This document shows positions 3,853 to 39,632 of a stretch of 64,000 bases of DNA, one piece after another. The notes under the pieces were generated by a model, which had not been told where the DNA came from, searched no databases, and saw nothing but the letters and a program-made list of their open reading frames with translations. Position 1 is the stretch's first letter. Each line of letters opens with the position of its first letter. Source of the stretch: Escherichia coli (GTDB lineage Bacteria; Pseudomonadota; Gammaproteobacteria; Enterobacterales; Enterobacteriaceae); assembly GCF_044647545.1 (NCBI RefSeq), contig NZ_CP172818.1; one strand, given 5' to 3'. The position numbers were made by a program, and so were the translations under genes.

Positions 3853-4167
3853 GCGTCGTTATGTTCCAGTAAGCAAAGCTGTTTCTGCGCCCTGTCAGCG
3901 CCCATAAAACAGAAGAGAAGGTAAGGTTAACGGGGTGAACGGTGTGGATTAAAGACGGGATAGCGATAACTAATAACCAAATCGACTAACCTGTTTTAGC
4001 AATAGTCTTTAACAACAAAATAGATTAACCAACCCAATGAAAAACAAATGAATATTGCCCATCAATAAGATAAATCAGCGATTTTGCGCAACAAAGTCGT
4101 TTTAGATAATGCGAAAAAACAGCCTTTCCGGTACTCTACGGCGGTTTTATCGTCATGTAGAGAAATT

Positions 4168-6871: not shown

Positions 6872-7732
6872 TTATTGGCAATCTGCGTGAATGTTTGTCA
6901 CCATTGCCTCCAGCACCACTTTCCAGTCATCAACCACGCCAACATCTGCCTGTGAAAATACCGCTGCGCTGGCGTCATGATTAATCGCCACCACAAACTT
7001 GCTATTGCATACGCCCGCCATTAACGCTGCTGCGCCAGAAGCGCCAACAACAATACACACCTCAGGTGCCAGCAGATGTCCGGAAATACCAATCACTTTT
7101 TCAGCATCAACGCCACCGTTCATCACTCGCGCCCGACTGTAGCCCACTTCGGCTCCCAGCTTTTCTGCCAGCATAGCGATTTCCTGGTTATCTGCCTCTC
7201 CGCCCTGCCCCACCACCAGCACCCGTCTGGCTTCAGCTAATGGGTCGCGGGTAACATTTTTCAGGTTTTCTAGGCTAACCAGCCAGTCGGGAAGCGCGCC
7301 GGGGACAATGTTCAGTTGCTGCATCCCAGAGGGCAACGTGGCGTTTTTATCTGCTCCCGCCTGACGCGCCAGCGAAAGGCATAGCGGGCGTTTGTCTGTT
7401 TGCAGCGTCGCCGTCAACGCATTTCCCCAGTGGGATTTGCGCACGCTTACGGTTGGAATATCTAACGAAGTCACCTGGCAGATGCTTGCACCATGTAAAC
7501 GCCAGGCCAGCCGGGTCGACAGTTCATCGCCAAACGTTCCCGGCGGAAAGAGAACAACGTCCGCAGGCGTTCGCTGCCACTGTTCCACCAACGCATCCAG
7601 CACCTGTTCCGCCACTACGGGCTGAGGTTCAATCTGCCAGTGCGCCAGGGTACAACCGCTGAAATCCTGCGCCGCCAGCCAGCTCGCTATTGCGGCATTC
7701 TCCTGATTTATTGTCACAATTGCGATATTCAT
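6872..7732 (-). CDS. ygcQ: electron transfer flavoprotein alpha subunit-like (FixB-like)
   Basis: ORF track 6872-7765; likely start at MNIAIVTINQENAAIASWL (286 aa). Confidence 0.8.
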   Translation of the reverse strand: MNIAIVTINQENAAIASWLAAQDFSGCTLAHWQIEPQPVVAEQVLDALVEQWQRTPADVVLFPPGTFGDELSTRLAWRLHGASICQVTSLDIPTVSVRKSHWGNALTATLQTDKRPLCLSLARQAGADKNATLPSGMQQLNIVPGALPDWLVSLENLKNVTRDPLAEARRVLVVGQGGEADNQEIAMLAEKLGAEVGYSRARVMNGGVDAEKVIGISGHLLAPEVCIVVGASGAAALMAGVCNSKFVVAINHDASAAVFSQADVGVVDDWKVVLEAMVTNIHADCQ

Positions 7733-11440: not shown

Positions 11441-12226
11441 TTAGCGCACTAAATAACCGCCATCGACCACTAATAAATGCCCGTTAACATAATTTGAAGC
11501 CGGACTTGCGAGGAAGACGGCTGCGCCCATTAAATCCTGTGTATCGCCCCAACGGTTTGCCGGAATATGATCAAGAACGCGCTGATTAGTTTCAGGATTA
11601 CTGCGTGTCGCCAGCGTAATATCTGTTGCATAATAACCTGGAGCAATACCATTTACCTGAATATTATATTGACCTAGTTCATCACAATAAGCTTTGGTGA
11701 ATCCAGCAAGAGCATGTTTAGTTGCAGAATATGCAGGTGACCATTGTCCACCTAAGTAAGAGAACAATGAACAGATATTAATAATTTTACCGCTTTTCTG
11801 CGGGATCATAATTTTTGCCGCTTCGTAGCTTAACTCGAATGCGGCGGTCAGGTTCACATCAATCATCGGGTCCCAGTCGGCACGACCGAAGTCCAGCACC
11901 TTATTCAGCTTACAAATACCGGCATTGTTAACCAGAATATCTACGGTACCGAAGCGCTCACAGCAGGCAGCGATAATCTTCTGCGGCGCGCCTTCTGCGG
12001 TGATATCCACCTGCATAAAATCAACTTCGACACCCTGTTTTTCAATCATTTCCTTTGTTTCGCCGTTATCTTTGACGAAGCTAGGGATAAAGACATTTGC
12101 GCCAGCTTTGGCCAACGCCATGGCAAATGCCTGGCCTAAACCGCTATTCCCGCCGGTAACAATTGCTGTTTTACCTTTCAGGGAGAAAAAATCCATTGAG
12201 AACGCATTGAGAGATTCGATTGACAT
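11441..12226 (-). CDS. ygcW: short-chain dehydrogenase/reductase (SDR)
   Basis: ORF track 11441-12301; likely start MSIESLNAF...; TGGNSGLG cofactor motif and Y..K catalytic pair. Confidence 0.85.
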   Translation of the reverse strand: MSIESLNAFSMDFFSLKGKTAIVTGGNSGLGQAFAMALAKAGANVFIPSFVKDNGETKEMIEKQGVEVDFMQVDITAEGAPQKIIAACCERFGTVDILVNNAGICKLNKVLDFGRADWDPMIDVNLTAAFELSYEAAKIMIPQKSGKIINICSLFSYLGGQWSPAYSATKHALAGFTKAYCDELGQYNIQVNGIAPGYYATDITLATRSNPETNQRVLDHIPANRWGDTQDLMGAAVFLASPASNYVNGHLLVVDGGYLVR

Positions 12227-12544
12227 AGTTAGCTCCAATTTCCGTAAGGCAAAAAAAAAGAAAGGTAACTTCCCCCGCGAGAGGGAAGTTACCTTTCTCA
12301 TTATCTCTGGTAACTGGAGATAATTTTTAGCATAAGGGCATAAGCGCTAATGTGATCGTAATCACAGTGTGATATTCGTATTATCAAATAATTTTAAAAA
12401 GCAGAAGCGTGACTACTCTCACACAACACCACTGCTTTCCATGTTATTTCTTATTGCAATTACTAGAGACCTGAGAAAAGTAATCCACCTGAAAGGGCGG
12501 CTTACTTTTCTCTTTTTTTTGTCTATTACAAATGGGAATACGAT

Positions 12545-13848: not shown

Positions 13849-15327
13849 ATGTCGAAAAAATACATCATAGGGATTGATGGCGGAAGTCAGAGCACAAAAG
13901 TGGTGATGTACGATCTGGAAGGTAATGTGGTTTGCGAAGGCAAAGGCTTATTGCAGCCGATGCACACGCCAGATGCCGATACCGCAGAACATCCTGACGA
14001 CGATTTATGGGCATCATTATGTTTTGCCGGTCACGATTTGATGAGTCAGTTTGCCGGAAATAAAGAAGATATTGTCGGTATTGGTCTGGGATCCATCCGT
14101 TGCTGCCGTGCGTTATTGAAAGCCGATGGCACGCCAGCTGCGCCGTTGATTAGCTGGCAGGATGCACGCGTTACACGCCCTTACGAACATACGAATCCTG
14201 ACGTGGCATATGTCACCTCTTTTTCAGGTTATCTGACGCATCGCTTAACCGGCGAGTTTAAAGACAATATCGCCAACTATTTTGGTCAGTGGCCGGTGGA
14301 TTATAAGACCTGGGCATGGAGTGAAGATGCCGCAGTCATGGAGAAGTTTAATATCCCCCGTCATATGCTGTTTGATGTGCAAATGCCGGGCACTGTTCTT
14401 GGGCATATCACTCCTCAAGCCGCGCTGGCGACACATTTCCCAGCTGGGCTGCCGGTTGTTTGTACCACCAGTGATAAACCGGTAGAAGCTCTGGGAGCCG
14501 GATTACTGGATGATGAAACGGCGGTGATTTCTCTTGGCACCTACATCGCGCTGATGATGAACGGTAAAGCACTGCCGAAAGATCCGGTGGCGTACTGGCC
14601 GATTATGTCTTCTATTCCGCAAACATTGCTGTATGAAGGTTACGGTATTCGCAAAGGCATGTGGACGGTGAGCTGGCTGCGCGACATGTTAGGCGAGTCG
14701 TTAATTCAGGATGCCAAAGCACAGGATCTTTCACCGGAAGATTTGCTCAACAAAAAAGCGTCTTGTGTGCCGCCTGGCTGTAATGGTCTGATGACGGTGC
14801 TGGACTGGCTGACCAATCCGTGGGAACCATACAAACGCGGGATTATGATCGGCTTTGATTCCAGCATGGATTACGCATGGATATATCGTTCGATACTGGA
14901 AAGCGTGGCGCTGACGCTGAAGAACAATTACGACAATATGTGTAATGAAATGAATCACTTTGCAAAGCATGTGATCATTACTGGCGGCGGTTCGAACAGC
15001 GATCTGTTTATGCAGATTTTTGCCGACGTGTTCAACCTTCCGGCACGCCGTAACGCCATTAATGGTTGTGCAAGTCTGGGGGCAGCGATCAATACGGCGG
15101 TAGGTCTGGGGCTATACCCGGATTACGCAACGGCTGTCGACAAAATGGTTCGCGTGAAAGATATCTTTATGCCTGTTGAGAGCAACGCCAAACGCTACGA
15201 CGCGATGAATAAAGGCATTTTCAAAGACCTAACCAAGCACACTGATGTGATCCTGAAAAAATCGTATGAAGTGATGCATGGTGAGCTGGGGAATGAAGAT
15301 TCGATCCAGAGCTGGTCGAATGCGTAA
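13849..15327 (+). CDS. ygcE: FGGY-family carbohydrate kinase
   Basis: 492-aa ORF; N-terminal IGIDGGSQSTKVV sugar-kinase motif. Confidence 0.85.
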   Translation: MSKKYIIGIDGGSQSTKVVMYDLEGNVVCEGKGLLQPMHTPDADTAEHPDDDLWASLCFAGHDLMSQFAGNKEDIVGIGLGSIRCCRALLKADGTPAAPLISWQDARVTRPYEHTNPDVAYVTSFSGYLTHRLTGEFKDNIANYFGQWPVDYKTWAWSEDAAVMEKFNIPRHMLFDVQMPGTVLGHITPQAALATHFPAGLPVVCTTSDKPVEALGAGLLDDETAVISLGTYIALMMNGKALPKDPVAYWPIMSSIPQTLLYEGYGIRKGMWTVSWLRDMLGESLIQDAKAQDLSPEDLLNKKASCVPPGCNGLMTVLDWLTNPWEPYKRGIMIGFDSSMDYAWIYRSILESVALTLKNNYDNMCNEMNHFAKHVIITGGGSNSDLFMQIFADVFNLPARRNAINGCASLGAAINTAVGLGLYPDYATAVDKMVRVKDIFMPVESNAKRYDAMNKGIFKDLTKHTDVILKKSYEVMHGELGNEDSIQSWSNA

Positions 15328-15373
15328 GTGAGGAAGACCGGGCGGGAAACTGCCCGGCCTGAACATACCTGAA

Positions 15374-15510
15374 TGGTTATCCCCGCTGACGCGGGGAACA
15401 TAAGTTCGACAACTTAAAAAATGATAACAAGTCCGGTTTATCCCCGCTGATGCAGGGAACATAATAAAAACTTTAACTAGTTCGTTTATCCCTGTTGTTA
15501 CAAGGAATAT
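15374..15510 (-). CRISPR. Decayed CRISPR remnant: three degenerate type I-E repeats
   Basis: tggttatccccgctgacgcggggaacat (15374-15401), cggtttatccccgctgatgcagggaacat (15434-15462) and tcgtttatccctgttgttacaaggaatat (15482-15510) are mutated copies of the downstream repeat. Confidence 0.7.
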
Positions 15511-15964
15511 TAACTACACTCGATGTCTTTAGAATAAAAGACAATACGAATCGCACTTTATCAATTTTCACTTAAAGTATGAACTGGATATCTTTATTCA
15601 TAAGAACTATTCATCAACAGCGTATAGAGGCGGTTATGTAAAACCACTCATTAGCCTCAAAACAAAGACAAACTTCCAGATTTATTACTTAATCAATGAA
15701 TAACAAGCTTAAAAAATACACTGTTATTCTAAAGAAAAAATTAACAGGCATTAATTAATATTAAAAAAAATAATATATTAAAATTTCTTAACGGTTTAAG
15801 GATTATACAAATAACACTTTGATTAAATTTGATTTTTTGTATCGATAATTGTGAACTTATCTGGCATGGAGAACTATTTTGAACATGAGGTGTTATGTGG
15901 ATATGTTGCTTATTACAAGTACAGCTAATATAAAAACTTGAGAAAGAGATAACGGGTTATATGG
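15511..15964. other. AT-rich non-coding spacer between the CRISPR remnant and the intact array (possible fossil leader)
   Basis: No credible ORFs; strongly AT-rich; sits on the leader side of the degenerate repeats by analogy with the intact array. Confidence 0.4.
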
Positions 15965-16367
15965 TGGTTCATCCCCGCTGGCGCGGGGAACACGTCTTTT
16001 TGACCGGCCGGTAAATCGTCTGCCTGCGGTTTATCCCCGCTGGCGCGGGGAACACAAACCATTCTCGCAATCAAGGACTATTCCTAGACGGTTTATCCCC
16101 GCTGGCGCGGGGAACACGGTCGCAGGGAATACAAAGCCGTGCATCCTGCTCGGTTTATCCCCGCTGGCGCGGGGAACACTGGCTCTGCAACAGCAGCACT
16201 ATGACCCCGTCGGTTTATCCCCGCTGGCGCGGGGAACACGAAAAGCTTATGATCGTTAATGCCGCAAACACCGGTTTATCCCCGCTGGCGCGGGGAACAC
16301 ATTACACCTATGTGCGAGCGCCCGGTTTTTGCCGCTAGCGGTTTATCCCCGCTGGCGCGGGGAACAC
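15965..16367 (-). CRISPR. Type I-E CRISPR array, 7 repeats and 6 spacers, no adjacent cas genes
   Basis: Repeat cggtttatccccgctggcgcggggaacac (29 bp) at 16027, 16089, 16151, 16211, 16272 and 16339, plus a degenerate terminal copy at about 15965; spacers 31-38 bp; orientation inferred from the AT-rich leader on the high-coordinate side. Confidence 0.95.
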
Positions 16368-16600
16368 TCTAAACATAACCTATTATTAATTAATGATTTT
16401 TTAAGCCAGTCACAATCTACCAACTTTATAGTATCACACAAACAACACATCCATTATGTTAAAGAGCACTTAATCCATTGATTAAAAAGGTAAATATTTA
16501 AAATAACTCTATACAAACTAAAATCTACCAAACTTTACCGCAATAATTTTCACTCCAGCGAAAAATTAACGCCACAGAATTTGTAGAGAATGATAATGAT
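16368..16600 (-). promoter_or_regulatory. Putative CRISPR leader (AT-rich, promoter-containing)
   Basis: AT-rich ORF-free stretch directly abutting the best-conserved repeat; the degenerate repeat lies at the opposite end of the array. Confidence 0.6.
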
Positions 16601-16706
16601 TAGTTCAGGATGGGCAAGATGGATGAGTTTTCAGAGGCGACAAACAATATAAATGAGTAGAAGTCTTTACAGGTTCCACCCATTTATAACGCTTATAAAT
16701 GTTTAA

Positions 16707-17378
16707 TCAGGCAATATTTAGATATTTATGTGTTTGCATCGACAAACGCCAATTACGCGCAATGCAGGTTTCAATGCACAAACGTGTGGCATCATCCTTT
16801 TGGCTAATCGGCTGCAGTGCAATGACTCGCGGTTTATCATCGGTCAGCGTTGCCAGTAGTTCATCCAGTGCTTCAATATCACGTACGCGCCCCACTGGAT
16901 GCTTGATTTCGTTGGCTCGCTCCAGTGCCTGTGACAACACTTCATAGCCGCCGCGCATGTTCAACTTTGGTGATACGGTAACCCAGGTATTCGGTGTGCA
17001 GCGTACCTCATGAGTACCACTGGTTTCGATCTGGCAGCTAAAACCGTTCTTTTCGAGCAGATCAGTCAGTGGCAGCAAATCATGAATGCAAGGCTCACCA
17101 CCCGTAATCACCACATGCCGTGCGGTGTATCCCTGGCGACCAATGACAGCCAGCAAATCTTCACTGCTCGCAGCCCCCCACTTATCACTCTCTTTGGTCT
17201 TCGCCAGAATGCTGAAAAGGGAGACTTCCCGATCCTCAAGCTTTTCCCAGGTGTGTTTGGTGTCGCACCAGGCACAGCCAACCGGGCATCCCTGTAAACG
17301 AATAAAAATGGCGGGGACGCCGGTAAAGTAACCCTCACCTTGCAGGGTCTGGAACATCTCGTTAATCGGGTACTGCAT
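16707..17378 (-). CDS. queE: 7-carboxy-7-deazaguanine synthase (radical SAM)
   Basis: 223-aa ORF; CxxxCxxC-like radical-SAM motif (QGCPVGCAWCDTKH) near the N-terminus. Confidence 0.9.
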   Translation of the reverse strand: MQYPINEMFQTLQGEGYFTGVPAIFIRLQGCPVGCAWCDTKHTWEKLEDREVSLFSILAKTKESDKWGAASSEDLLAVIGRQGYTARHVVITGGEPCIHDLLPLTDLLEKNGFSCQIETSGTHEVRCTPNTWVTVSPKLNMRGGYEVLSQALERANEIKHPVGRVRDIEALDELLATLTDDKPRVIALQPISQKDDATRLCIETCIARNWRLSMQTHKYLNIA

Positions 17379-38267: not shown

Positions 38268-39632
38268 TTGATTACACATATTAGCCCGCTTGGCTCCATG
38301 GATATGTTGTCGCAGCTGGAAGTGGATATGCTTAAACGCACCGCCAGCAGCGACCTCTATCAACTGTTTCGCAACTGTTCACTTGCCGTACTGAACTCCG
38401 GTAGTTTGACCGATAACAGCAAAGAATTGCTGTCTCGTTTTGAAAATTTCGATATTAACGTCCTGCGCCGTGAACGCGGCGTAAAGCTGGAACTGATTAA
38501 TCCCCCGGAAGAGGCTTTTGTCGATGGGCGAATTATTCGCGCTTTGCAGGCCAACTTGTTCGCGGTTCTGCGTGACATTCTCTTCGTTTACGGGCAAATC
38601 CATAACACCGTTCGTTTTCCCAATCTGAATCTCGACAACTCCGTCCACATCACTAACCTGGTCTTTTCCATCTTGCGTAACGCTCGCGCGCTGCATGTTG
38701 GTGAAGCGCCAAATATGGTGGTCTGCTGGGGCGGGCACTCAATTAACGAAAACGAGTATTTGTATGCCCGTCGCGTCGGGAATCAGCTGGGCCTGCGTGA
38801 GCTGAATATCTGCACCGGCTGTGGTCCGGGAGCGATGGAAGCGCCGATGAAAGGTGCTGCGGTCGGACACGCGCAGCAGCGTTACAAAGACAGTCGCTTT
38901 ATTGGTATGACAGAGCCGTCGATTATCGCCGCTGAACCGCCTAACCCGCTGGTCAACGAATTGATCATCATGCCAGATATCGAAAAACGTCTGGAAGCGT
39001 TTGTCCGTATCGCTCACGGTATCATTATCTTCCCTGGCGGTGTGGGTACAGCAGAAGAGTTGCTGTATTTGCTGGGAATTTTAATGAACCCGGCCAACAA
39101 AGATCAGGTTTTACCATTGATCCTCACCGGCCCGAAAGAGAGCGCCGACTACTTCCGCGTACTGGACGAGTTTGTCGTGCATACGCTGGGTGAAAACGCG
39201 CGCCGCCATTACCGCATCATCATTGATGACGCCGCTGAAGTCGCTCGTCAGATGAAAAAATCGATGCCGCTGGTGAAAGAAAATCGCCGCGACACAGGCG
39301 ATGCCTACAGCTTTAACTGGTCAATGCGCATTGCGCCAGATTTGCAAATGCCGTTTGAGCCGTCTCACGAGAATATGGCTAATCTGAAGCTTTACCCGGA
39401 TCAACCCGTTGAAGTGCTGGCTGCCGACCTGCGCCGTGCGTTCTCCGGTATTGTGGCGGGTAACGTAAAAGAAGTCGGTATTCGCGCCATTGAAGAGTTT
39501 GGTCCTTATAAAATCAACGGCGATAAAGAGATTATGCGTCGTATGGATGACCTGCTACAGGGTTTTGTTGCCCAGCATCGTATGAAGTTGCCAGGCTCAG
39601 CCTACATCCCTTGCTACGAAATCTGCACGTAA
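38268..39632 (+). CDS. ppnN: pyrimidine/purine nucleotide 5'-monophosphate nucleosidase (LOG-like)
   Basis: 454-aa ORF that starts at a TTG codon (ttg att aca cat...); LOG/TIGR00730-like core (PGGxGTxEE). Confidence 0.88.

Follow-up and report, generated by a model that had tools for sequence, protein, structure and literature searches.

The CRISPR2.2 mini-array of Escherichia coli: a leaderless, nearly invariant relic and probably the orphaned end of the CRISPR-II array

In a stretch of 64,000 nucleotides of Escherichia coli DNA (hereafter the window), three mutated copies of a CRISPR repeat lie directly behind ygcE and are separated by AT-rich DNA from a second, longer array of the same repeat. 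A preliminary description of this locus took the three copies for a fossil array caught in the act of decay and the AT-rich DNA for its dead leader, left behind by the turnover of tandem arrays. The locus thus raises the question of what the separated repeats are, how they lost contact with a leader and whether the AT-rich DNA ever served as one. The analysis reported here indicates with high probability that they make up CRISPR2.2, a mini-array in the CRISPR-II locus (ygcE-queE) of E. coli. It is a relic without a leader, has stopped taking up new spacers and probably represents the orphaned leader-distal part of the locus.

The CRISPR-II locus and its three degenerate repeats

The left anchor of the locus is ygcE (13849-15327, plus strand), a 492-aa ORF for an FGGY-family carbohydrate kinase, which is annotated at the orthologous position in the K-12-like, CFSAN061771 and ECONIH1 genomes. 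The right anchor is queE (ygcF; 16707-17378, minus strand). Between these genes follow the repeats R1 to R3, 454 bp of AT-rich DNA, the CRISPR2.3 array with seven repeats and six spacers (15965-16367, minus strand) and leader 2.3 (16368-16706, minus strand). Leader 2.3 adjoins queE and is the only recognisable leader of the locus; it is 93.5% identical in E. albertii and homologous to both types of CRISPR-I leader. On the plus strand the repeats are the reverse complement of GTGTTCCCCGCGCCAGCGGGGATAAACCG and leaders are therefore found on the high-coordinate side, in agreement with the preliminary description. No cas genes and no other repeats are present within the 64-kb window, and the tandem repeats found with TRF are restricted to the array itself; in related genomes the cas operon is located approximately 15-25 kb from the mini-array.

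The region 15328-15964 is 100% identical in E. coli CFSAN061771 and ECONIH1 and is therefore genuine sequence. The neighbouring CRISPR2.3 array had been regarded as intact. Its repeats are indeed canonical, but its spacers are abnormal, being chimeric and 31-38 nt long, and in this window the array looks like an assembly artefact. Between ygcE and R1, a hairpin with a GAAA loop and an 8-bp GC-rich stem can be read from the sequence (15338-15357), which is conserved beside R1 in E. albertii and E. whittamii. It has no T-run and was not called in a terminator scan; it is probably an end-of-transcript structure common to ygcE and the CRISPR transcript.

All three repeats are encoded on the minus strand and were scored as matches against the 27-nt repeat core. 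R1, a degenerate terminal "anchor" repeat (15373-15401; crRNA sense ATGTTCCCCGCGTCAGCGGGGATAACCAT), matches at 24/27 positions, R2 (15434-15462) at 23/27 and the strongly degenerate R3 (15483-15510) at 18/27; that mutated repeat copies directly follow ygcE is confirmed. The similarity of R1 and R2 to the consensus repeat is still 85-89%. The three repeats conform to type I-E (Kunin cluster 2), 29 nt with a CCCCGC/GCGGGG palindrome; R3 is 29 nt long in the species consensus and 28 nt here, this lineage having lost one G and changed one T to G, and both private changes are common to CFSAN061771 and ECONIH1. R2 is identical at 28/29 positions to the second-oldest (leader-distal) repeat of K-12 CRISPR-I, and judged by this match the repeats of the mini-array are of an old generation. 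The spacing, which had been described as shortened and irregular, is short between R2 and R3 (period 48-49 bp), but R1 and R2 keep the canonical period of 61 bp. Spacer A (15402-15433, minus strand; crRNA sense GACTTGTTATCATTTTTTAAGTTGTCGAACTT) has the canonical length of 32 nt, and spacer B (15463-15482, minus strand) is shortened to 20 nt.

This arrangement is already known: descriptions of it for E. coli date back to 2010, and the nomenclature for CRISPR typing makes use of it. As far as the summaries in PMC4489801, PMC3903273, PMC3737337 and PMC10910852 go, CRISPR2.2 (Díez-Villaseñor et al., 2010) is located between ygcE and ygcF/queE; it consists of three repeats and two invariable spacers (PMC4489801) and lies 0.5 kb from CRISPR2.3 (PMC3903273, PMC3737337). 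The position directly after ygcE, the three type-2 (I-E) repeats and the two invariable spacers are all reproduced here, the gap of 454 bp corresponds to the AT-rich DNA of about 0.5 kb that is reported to lie between the mini-array and CRISPR2.3 with its leader, and the fused CRISPR2.2-3 form of other strains is likewise confirmed. Nothing material differs, the two private changes in R3 being the only deviations. The view that a degenerate array that no longer grows stands beside an array of the active type was well founded.

Conservation of the mini-array and a possible regulatory role

The region 15328-15964 is found at a coverage of at least 80% in 4,123 of 5,426 complete E. coli genomes. 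Positions 15373-15632 have at least 95% identity to the window in all but 5 of 4,164 genomes, and in a spread sample the full-length matches are 98.5-100% identical, which corresponds to approximately four or fewer differences in 260 bp. Nucleotide diversity (pi) is about 0-0.008 (approximately 0.004) for positions 15398-15596, compared to approximately 0.03 in the flanks and the working leader, and five segregating sites were observed there where about 18-22 were expected. Within E. coli, the mini-array and approximately 85-120 bp beside R3 are thus less diverse than the flanking genes and the working leader. Both spacers are identical across 12 diverse strains, and spacer A contains no variable site. 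Strain-to-strain variation of spacers, which is a sign of acquisition, was seen neither in these strains nor in the full-length matches sampled from the approximately 4,160 genomes. The relic is strikingly frozen and held almost invariant, and it is neither decaying nor drifting. This invariance argues against integration of spacers during the diversification of E. coli. The picture of a snapshot of decay does not hold: approximately 4,160 genomes carry the degenerate state in fixed and nearly unvarying form.

Each of the three repeats forms the canonical hairpin in the crRNA sense, R2 and R3 in that sense only. The R1 hairpin has a folding energy of −15.1 kcal/mol. The R2 hairpin is maintained via a U.G wobble and has −12.1 kcal/mol in the crRNA sense, compared to −8.7 kcal/mol with a broken stem in the plus sense. 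In the 7-bp hairpin of R3, two C-G pairs are replaced by compensatory U-A pairs and one U.G wobble is present; its folding energy is −7.9 kcal/mol (z −4.2) in the crRNA sense and −4.4 kcal/mol (z −1.4) in the plus sense. R2 contains the intact 8-mer of the 5′-handle, ATAAACCG. In the species consensus of R3 the handle is likewise intact (8/8), whereas 10 of the 21 other positions are changed; the chance of the handle remaining intact given these other changes is approximately 0.02-0.03.

The near-invariance together with the hairpins in the crRNA sense hints at constraint, possibly on a crRNA-like regulator. If the mini-array were transcribed, by read-through from CRISPR2.3 or from a start within the AT-rich DNA, it could yield two crRNA-like RNAs. 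CRISPR2.2 and the approximately 85-120 bp beside R3 might then be a selectively maintained gene for a Cascade-loadable, CreR/CreA-like RNA, or another structured non-coding element, with a target outside the regions searched; we consider this an improbable reading of the sequence data. In its more specific version, the mini-array would be a regulator of the CreA/CreR type whose RNA is processed, loaded into Cascade and guides it by partial complementarity to repress some promoter. This would be compatible with an origin as orphaned array end, and we regard it as unlikely as well. It could account for the low diversity and the few segregating sites at 15398-15596, for the few differences within the spread sampled from the approximately 4,160 genomes, for the 7-bp hairpins of R2 and R3 that form in the crRNA sense only, and for an R3 that is eroded except for its handle; such a pattern, in which the handle is kept and the rest lost, is described for creA/creR (PMC8501985). 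In both E. coli and Salmonella, type I-E mini-arrays are known that regulate cas promoters.

The mini-array resembles the CreA/CreR mini-arrays (PMC8501985; bioRxiv preprints 10.1101/2023.03.10.532045 and 10.1101/2023.03.03.530964) in its degenerate repeats, its conserved "spacers", the lack of an IHF-type leader and its conservation in evolution, and here, too, the upstream repeats keep the 5′-handle and the downstream repeats the hairpin. In contrast to them it is located outside the cas operon, and neither a PAM-flanked partial target nor an associated toxin was found for it. Neither spacer has a target with a seed of at least 10 nt and a type I-E PAM in the 64-kb window or in the K-12-like, CFSAN061771 and O157 cas loci, which speaks against the regulator, as does the distance of approximately 24 kb from the cas operon, known creR/creA elements being situated inside cas loci. 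A search of IMG/VR gave no viral protospacer for spacer A, the sole match being the chromosomal locus itself. Furthermore, the mini-array is retained in BL21-type strains that have no cas genes (PMC3737337), Cas6e may not recognise the altered stem of R3, and the low diversity by itself could stem from another constraint, such as a DNA site or a terminator, or from a local sweep. Should the conservation nevertheless reflect function, a crRNA-like regulator would have gone unrecognised in E. coli K-12, approximately 24 kb from the cas operon and thus at a position from which CreR/CreA-like elements have not been described. This reading is cheap to test, and E. coli has the best-studied type I-E system.

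Origin of the separated repeats

The ATAACCAT end of R1 is also present on the terminal repeat in E. albertii, E. whittamii and the strains Nissle and 19KM1831, whose arrays are unsplit, and unsplit arrays ending in R1 are found in FDAARGOS_1299, DA61218 and FDAARGOS_1253, too. In E. whittamii R1 alone adjoins the leader. Comparison of these loci shows that the locus as a whole ancestrally terminated in R1. R1 thereby resembles the degenerate terminal "anchor" repeats (Almendros et al., 2014; PMC3903273): it is degenerate at the leader-distal end, has a fixed place beside the flanking gene and, irrespective of what the array contains, is conserved among Escherichia species. The two-array form differs from the published anchor repeats (PMC3903273) in having two more degenerate repeats after R1 and a leader that is cut off.

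None of 80 Enterobacteriaceae queE loci contains the AT-rich DNA; among them are those of three non-E. coli Escherichia lineages, which served as outgroups (E. fergusonii, E. marmotae, E. ruysiae and Shigella lie outside this sample). We propose that CRISPR2.2, with the layout R3, spacer B, R2, spacer A, R1, was once the leader-distal end of a continuous array and was orphaned when, on the E. coli stem, the AT-rich segment became part of the array, which would have separated these repeats from the leader. Cas1-Cas2 together with IHF integrates spacers only at the leader-repeat junction, and the relic would therefore have been frozen since the separation. CRISPR2.3, from which about 0.45 kb of AT-rich DNA of the H-NS type separates the relic, has a leader and can acquire spacers. 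Recombination between R1 and a CRISPR2.3 repeat would delete the relic together with the AT-rich DNA and produce the fused CRISPR2.2-3 form of some lineages; chimeric R1 variants, which are crossovers of R1 with another repeat, were observed.

The outgroups also bear on the idea of tandem array turnover. Two findings had been named as speaking against it and against the dead leader: a lack of similarity between the AT-rich DNA and the leader of the neighbouring array, which is what we found (see below), and the lack of an intact array at this position in any relative. An intact array does occupy the position of the mini-array in E. albertii and several E. coli strains, but it ends in R1 and uses leader 2.3. 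Among the relatives and strains with an R1-terminated array, none has a further array served by a leader of its own. The comparison with the outgroups favours the orphaned array end over turnover.

The history could also have run in the opposite direction: the two-array form could be the ancestral state, with separate losses in E. albertii, in E. whittamii and in B2-type E. coli. Deletions between direct repeats occur easily. The two-array form is found together with very divergent leader/queE haplotypes (JCH767) and must therefore be old. None of the single-array strains sampled has kept spacer A beside R1, so that a deletion from the two-array form fits at least as well as an insertion.

The AT-rich DNA and the question of a leader

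As described before, AT-rich and ORF-poor DNA separates the mini-array from CRISPR2.3: the stretch 15511-15964 is 454 bp long and has a GC content of 27%, compared to 49% for the whole window. No ORF longer than 25 aa lies wholly within it, and the longest ORF overlapping it (49 aa) extends into the array. The stretch has in common with the E. coli type I-E leaders 2.1 (both variants) and 2.3 that it is non-coding and rich in AT and that, in the sense of transcription, it lies directly upstream of a repeat, here R3. Unlike them, it has no sequence similarity to the leaders, lacks the junction and the leader-proximal sequence that leaders 2.1 and 2.3 have in common, and contains no promoter-like site called toward the array.

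When the stretch was aligned locally with leader 2.3, the score was 27, compared to 23.3 ± 3.1 for shuffled sequences, and 271 of 500 shuffles attained the score. The CRISPR-I leaders of K-12 and O157 were matched at chance level as well (score attained by 363/500 and 341/500 shuffles, respectively). In the positive control, leader 2.3 matched both CRISPR-I leaders (0/500 shuffles), with identities of 62% and 58% in the 60 nt adjoining the repeat. Anchored at the junction, the identity of the AT-rich stretch to the leaders is 22-33%, against 58-62% among true leaders. Neither a global MAFFT alignment nor a BLAST search (word size 7) against all loci compared, among them loci with arrays from other genera, gave a leader signal. 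A scan of 15511-15964 for sigma-70-like sites on the minus strand (at least 9/12) found none at the threshold; by eye a weak TTCATA-17-TAAAGT with an upstream TG can be seen. The interpretation as a dead leader fails a direct test. By these comparisons the AT-rich DNA is not detectably a leader, although sequence comparison alone could miss one that is fully eroded.

We regard it as unlikely that CRISPR2.2 was once an independent array, with the 454-bp stretch as its now dead leader, which was superseded by the leader-plus-array module of CRISPR2.3. The stretch is AT-rich, without long ORFs and on the correct, upstream side of R3, its 85-120 bp beside R3 are conserved, and the two-array form is old within E. 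coli. In addition, R1-R3 share a derived "AT" at positions 1-2 (crRNA sense), and R1 and R2 share a loop variant, both of which are missing from the CRISPR2.3 repeats; these shared derived characters suggest a separate phase in which the three repeats arose as copies of each other. However, the leaders to which the stretch has no similarity (leader 2.3 and the K-12-type and O157-type CRISPR-I leaders) are mutually recognisable, and a leader of the same age as R1 and R2 should have remained recognisable, too, since these repeats are still so similar to the consensus. The absence of a promoter-like site reading into R3 at the scan threshold also counts against a former leader, and so does R3 itself, which as the leader-proximal repeat is the most degenerate one. 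Moreover, at least three independent losses would be needed in the outgroups, and the literature describes leaders only beside CRISPR2.1 and CRISPR2.3 (PMC3903273, PMC3737337). That the three repeats are mere chance resemblances in intergenic DNA can practically be dismissed: R3 taken alone is weak, but dinucleotide shuffles of the 64-kb window gave no match with up to three mismatches, the R3 score was not attained in any of 5,000 shuffles of the 120 nt that follow R2, the spacing of R1 and R2 is canonical and R1 is orthologous to the terminal repeats of other species.

Several other features of the AT-rich stretch were considered and rejected. Only ORFs of 20-32 aa were seen as candidates for small proteins; the 32-aa ORF on the minus strand is frameshifted between lineages by the R3 indel, and the 20-aa ORF on the plus strand has a variable C-terminus. 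The best ungapped candidate for a hidden decayed repeat matches at 14/29 positions (p approximately 0.2) and the best gapped one is CTGGCATGGAGAAC (p approximately 0.06). An apparent 161-bp periodicity of CGG(N)TTA (15631, 15792, 15953) was taken for a coincidence, the intervals being 36% identical, which is the level of shuffled sequences. No Rfam family was found at E ≤ 1. Searches for a mobile origin of the AT-rich DNA gave zero phage matches, and the "plasmid" matches are mislabelled E. coli chromosomes. A MITE-like inverted repeat of 15 nt (15526-15540 and 15721-15735) matches at 14/15 positions; in AT-rich DNA of comparable size, approximately 0.4 such matches are expected from chance alone.

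The stretch consists of two parts. The left part (15511-15632, 32% GC) is nearly invariant along with the mini-array, and the right part (15633-15964) is variable, with a GC content of 26% that falls to 17%, an identity to the window of 90.7-100% in 4,161 genomes and a pi of up to 0.14. A "promoter island" of 347 bp is listed for ygcE/queE in Table 1 of Panyukov and Ozoline (2013; PMC3661553) and is bound by H-NS in all ChIP studies; by a rough cross-check with MG1655 coordinates it would lie at about 15695-16042. The right part probably corresponds to the island, as far as overlapping coordinates indicate, and the most AT-rich, hypervariable portion of the stretch fits the description given there for the ygcE-queE island.

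The ygcE-queE interval and its two arrays

The non-coding gap between ygcE (13849-15327, + strand) and queE/ygcF (16707-17378, - strand) is 1,379 bp long; the window also contains yqcE. Downstream of ygcE lie a GC-rich hairpin with a GAAA loop (15338-15357) and three degenerate repeat copies, R1 (15373-15401), R2 (15434-15462) and R3 (15483-15510), separated by spacer A (32 nt, 15402-15433) and spacer B (20 nt, 15463-15482). An AT-rich stretch of 454 bp with 27% GC (15511-15964), which contains no ORF of more than 25 amino acids wholly within it, leads to CRISPR2.3, an array with seven canonical repeats (15965-16367), and to leader 2.3, AT-rich as well (339 bp, 16368-16706), which extends up to the queE stop codon. 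Reverse-complementing the + strand repeat gives GTGTTCCCCGCGCCAGCGGGGATAAACCG, thus the arrays are read on the - strand and the leaders lie on the high-coordinate side. The preliminary description had reported this orientation, the mutated copies and the lack of long ORFs correctly; of the irregular spacing it described, the second spacing is indeed shortened, but the first is the canonical 61 bp.

Chance does not explain the three degenerate copies. Shuffles of the window yielded no match to the repeat with three or fewer mismatches, and the weakest copy, R3, scores 18/27, which none of 5,000 shuffled versions of the surrounding sequence reached. The sole other 27-mer in the window with at least 18/27 matches to the repeat core, at 38921-38947, lies inside a coding sequence with no copy nearby and was rejected as a chance match.

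In E. coli type I-E systems CRISPR2.1 adjoins the cas genes, the ygcE-ygcF interval carries either one array (CRISPR2.2-3) or two (CRISPR2.2 and CRISPR2.3) located 0.5 kb apart, and leaders have been reported beside CRISPR2.1 and CRISPR2.3 only (PMC3903273; PMC3737337). The degenerate mini-array is CRISPR2.2 of E. coli, an identity that was already known. Among 5,426 complete genomes of E. coli, 4,123 contain region 15328-15964 at a coverage of at least 80%, and CFSAN061771 and ECONIH1 match it with 100% identity. Fossil array is an apt term inasmuch as CRISPR2.2 has no leader and has stopped acquiring spacers; a dead leader and ongoing decay are not supported.

The CRISPR2.3 array had been called intact, which is true for its repeats, all canonical and exact matches to ECONIH1, but not for its spacers. 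These have abnormal lengths (33, 33, 33, 31, 32 and 38 nt; spacers of real E. coli arrays at this locus have 32 nt, sometimes 33), and the array was found in none of the complete E. coli genomes, the best match being 89.6%. ECONIH1-type genomes match the flanks (15328-15964, 16368-16706 and 17379-42000) at 100% identity, and their true CRISPR2.3 array has 18 spacers. The six spacers of the window agree with K-12 in number and order, each being a blend of ECONIH1/CFSAN061771 and K-12 sequences: spacer 1 is a corrupted form of ECONIH1 spacer 1, and spacers 2-6 correspond to K-12 spacers altered by substitutions and indels, of which spacer 3 resembles an ECONIH1 spacer at both ends and spacer 6 has an ending similar to that of the last spacer of ECONIH1. 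This chimeric region, confined to 15994-16338, looks like an artefact of consensus or reference-guided assembly or a synthetic sequence. The anomaly does not affect CRISPR2.2, the sequence of which is exact.

Leader comparison of the AT-rich stretch

The AT-rich stretch had been proposed to be the dead leader of CRISPR2.2. Global alignment of 15511-15964 with leader 2.3 (16368-16706) revealed common AT-richness and nothing more, and the local alignment score of 27 was reached by 40 of 300 dinucleotide shuffles (23.3 ± 3.1). The repeat-adjacent 150 nt were also compared in transcription sense with 500 shuffles each, including the leaders of CRISPR-I, the array beside the cas genes. The candidate stayed at shuffle level against leader 2.3 (271/500 shuffles reach the score), the K-12 CRISPR-I leader (363/500) and the O157-type CRISPR-I leader (341/500); in the positive control, leader 2.3 against both CRISPR-I leaders, 0/500 did. 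In the junction register the last 60 nt of leader 2.3 are 62% and 58% identical to the CRISPR-I leaders, those of the candidate 22-33% identical to true leaders. R1 and R2 are still 85-89% alike to the consensus repeat, so that an equally old leader of the same family should have stayed recognisable. The dead-leader proposal is not supported, since the three true leaders resemble each other and the candidate resembles none of them above shuffle level.

No promoter-like site directed into R3 was called in a scan of the stretch, which contains neither significant cryptic repeats nor an Rfam family. BLAST searches with word size 7 found it in E. coli only; it was absent beside the arrays of other genera, near K-12 CRISPR-I, in phages and, except for three mislabelled chromosomes, in plasmids. 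The Rfam 15 scan of 15200-16800 (E ≤ 1) returned no matches at all, canonical CRISPR repeats included; CRISPR repeat families seem either to lack representation in Rfam 15 or not to score in this region.

Conservation of the relic and possible function

Nucleotide diversity was determined along an alignment of twelve two-array strains picked for divergence. The 3′ coding sequence of ygcE has a pi of 0.015-0.064, the hairpin with R1 about 0.035 and the repeat-proximal part of the working leader 0.02-0.03. In 15398-15596, which comprises spacer A, R2, spacer B, R3 and about 85 bp beyond, pi is 0-0.008 (about 0.004), with five segregating sites, mainly singletons, in about 200 bp. The relic is thus better conserved than the adjacent coding sequences, and being nearly invariant it is not the snapshot of ongoing decay suggested previously. 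Region 15373-15632 is at least 95% identical to the window in all but 5 of 4,164 genomes, and full-length matches in a spread sample are 98.5-100% identical. The window has two private changes in R3, therefore most genomes are identical to each other over this region. For 15633-15964 identity to the window is 90.7-100%.

This sharp low-diversity valley has as its neighbour a hypervariable segment (15717-15876, pi 0.07-0.14) with two deep haplotypes, for instance TGGC versus ATAT at 15862-15865. A promoter island presumably lies at about 15695-16042, as converted from MG1655 positions; the sole check of this conversion was that the casA/cas3 island agrees with the cas position in a related genome. 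The island would correspond to the most AT-rich, hypervariable part of the stretch. This 347-bp island between ygcE and queE is bound by H-NS across all ChIP data sets (PMC3661553).

In crRNA sense R1, R2 and R3 each fold into the canonical hairpin with a 7-bp stem and a 4-nt loop in the canonical register (-15.1, -12.1 and -7.9 kcal/mol; z = -4.3, -3.3 and -4.2). Read in the other direction, R2 and R3 have broken stems (z about -1.3 to -1.4). The R3 hairpin is retained by two compensatory changes from C-G to U-A and one U·G wobble. The species consensus of R3 has kept the 5′ handle ATAAACCG in 8/8 nucleotides and differs from the repeat at 10/21 other positions; the chance of an intact handle is about 0.02-0.03, computed for a version with nine changes. 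For the complete minus-strand RNA of 301 nt the folding z is -4.9.

The crRNA-like regulators CreA/CreR are reported to keep handle and hairpin, to have lost the rest and to have no IHF-type leader, with type I-E examples in Salmonella and among E. coli cas3-cas8e spacers (PMC8501985; bioRxiv 10.1101/2023.03.10.532045; 10.1101/2023.03.03.530964). CRISPR2.2 resembles them in all three respects, and because of this pattern spacers A and B were screened for seed matches next to a PAM. Seeds of 7-10 nt, at chance level and in unsuitable context, were all that this screen returned from the 64-kb window and from three cas/CRISPR-I loci, those of CFSAN061771, O157 and a K-12-like strain. A Cascade-style search of IMG/VR with spacer A, in which every sixth base was disregarded, matched nothing but the chromosomal locus: IMGVR_UViG_2531839665_000019 (11700-12500) is the E. 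coli ygcE-CRISPR2.2-CRISPR2.3 locus, either mis-binned host sequence or prophage-flank carry-over. CRISPR2.2 also lies a long way from the cas genes and is retained in cas-less strains (PMC3737337), which makes a function as a CreA/CreR-type regulator speculative and, in our estimate, rather improbable. The conservation itself is solid; the remaining interest of CRISPR2.2 lies in this strong, strand-specific conservation.

Distribution and origin of the two-array form

Leader 2.3 is present in 4,562 of 5,426 E. coli genomes and the two-array form in about 4,120-4,140; about 860 (about 16%) have queE but neither leader 2.3 nor an array. The site of yqcE-ygcE and the CRISPR locus is occupied in MCJCHV-1 by genes for sucrose utilisation (PTS IIBC, sucrose-6-phosphate hydrolase and a LacI-type regulator). 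In M6 and NCTC9113 a large deletion fuses queD to a 5′-truncated ygcE pseudogene, without loss of CRISPR2.2, the AT-rich stretch or CRISPR2.3. OkiPb01688 carries IS1 in place of ygcE to most of the AT-rich stretch, of which the last 62 bp are left, and in Ec-U3 the IS66-family element ISCro1 lies between array and queE, with the first approximately 86 nt of the leader gone.

A QueE scan of one genome per species gave 80 Enterobacteriaceae loci. Several genera have a type I-E array with an ordinary degenerate terminal repeat right after queE, thus the queE-side leader position is old. In E. albertii the order is ygcE, hairpin, R1, spacer, repeat, spacer, repeat, leader 2.3 and queE; in E. whittamii leader 2.3 directly adjoins R1, and a third Escherichia lineage, SCPM-O-B-8794 (ygcE 93% identical), lacks repeats altogether. 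Single arrays with R1 as the last repeat occur in E. coli Nissle 1917, 19KM1831, FDAARGOS_1299 and DA61218, and FDAARGOS_1253 (L092) has one chimeric repeat, ATGGTTATCCCCGCTGGTGCGGGGAACTC, adjoining the leader. All single-array genomes keep the distinctive ATAACCAT end of R1, and the first two or three bases of R1 in crRNA sense are those of the local repeat variant, as expected for products of crossovers between R1 and other repeats. The chimeric variants (loci L092, L004/L090/L091 and L005) indicate such crossovers at differing points.

R1 is the ancestral terminal repeat of the locus, and in this sample the AT-rich DNA is specific to E. coli. Parsimony favours a split that arose once, on the E. 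coli stem, with a direction of change that we infer. Three points speak against a single stem origin: a segment between direct repeats is easily deleted, the most divergent leader/queE haplotype in the sample (JCH767) also has the two-array form, and spacer A is kept in no single-array strain. The second-oldest repeat in the CRISPR-I array of K-12 matches R2 in 28/29 positions, which is consistent with CRISPR2.2 holding old-generation, leader-distal repeats. The middle repeat of E. albertii NBRC 107761 (7071-7099, beginning with GGGGGCCCCGCG) has a G/C run in place of GTTCC, possibly a draft-assembly error.
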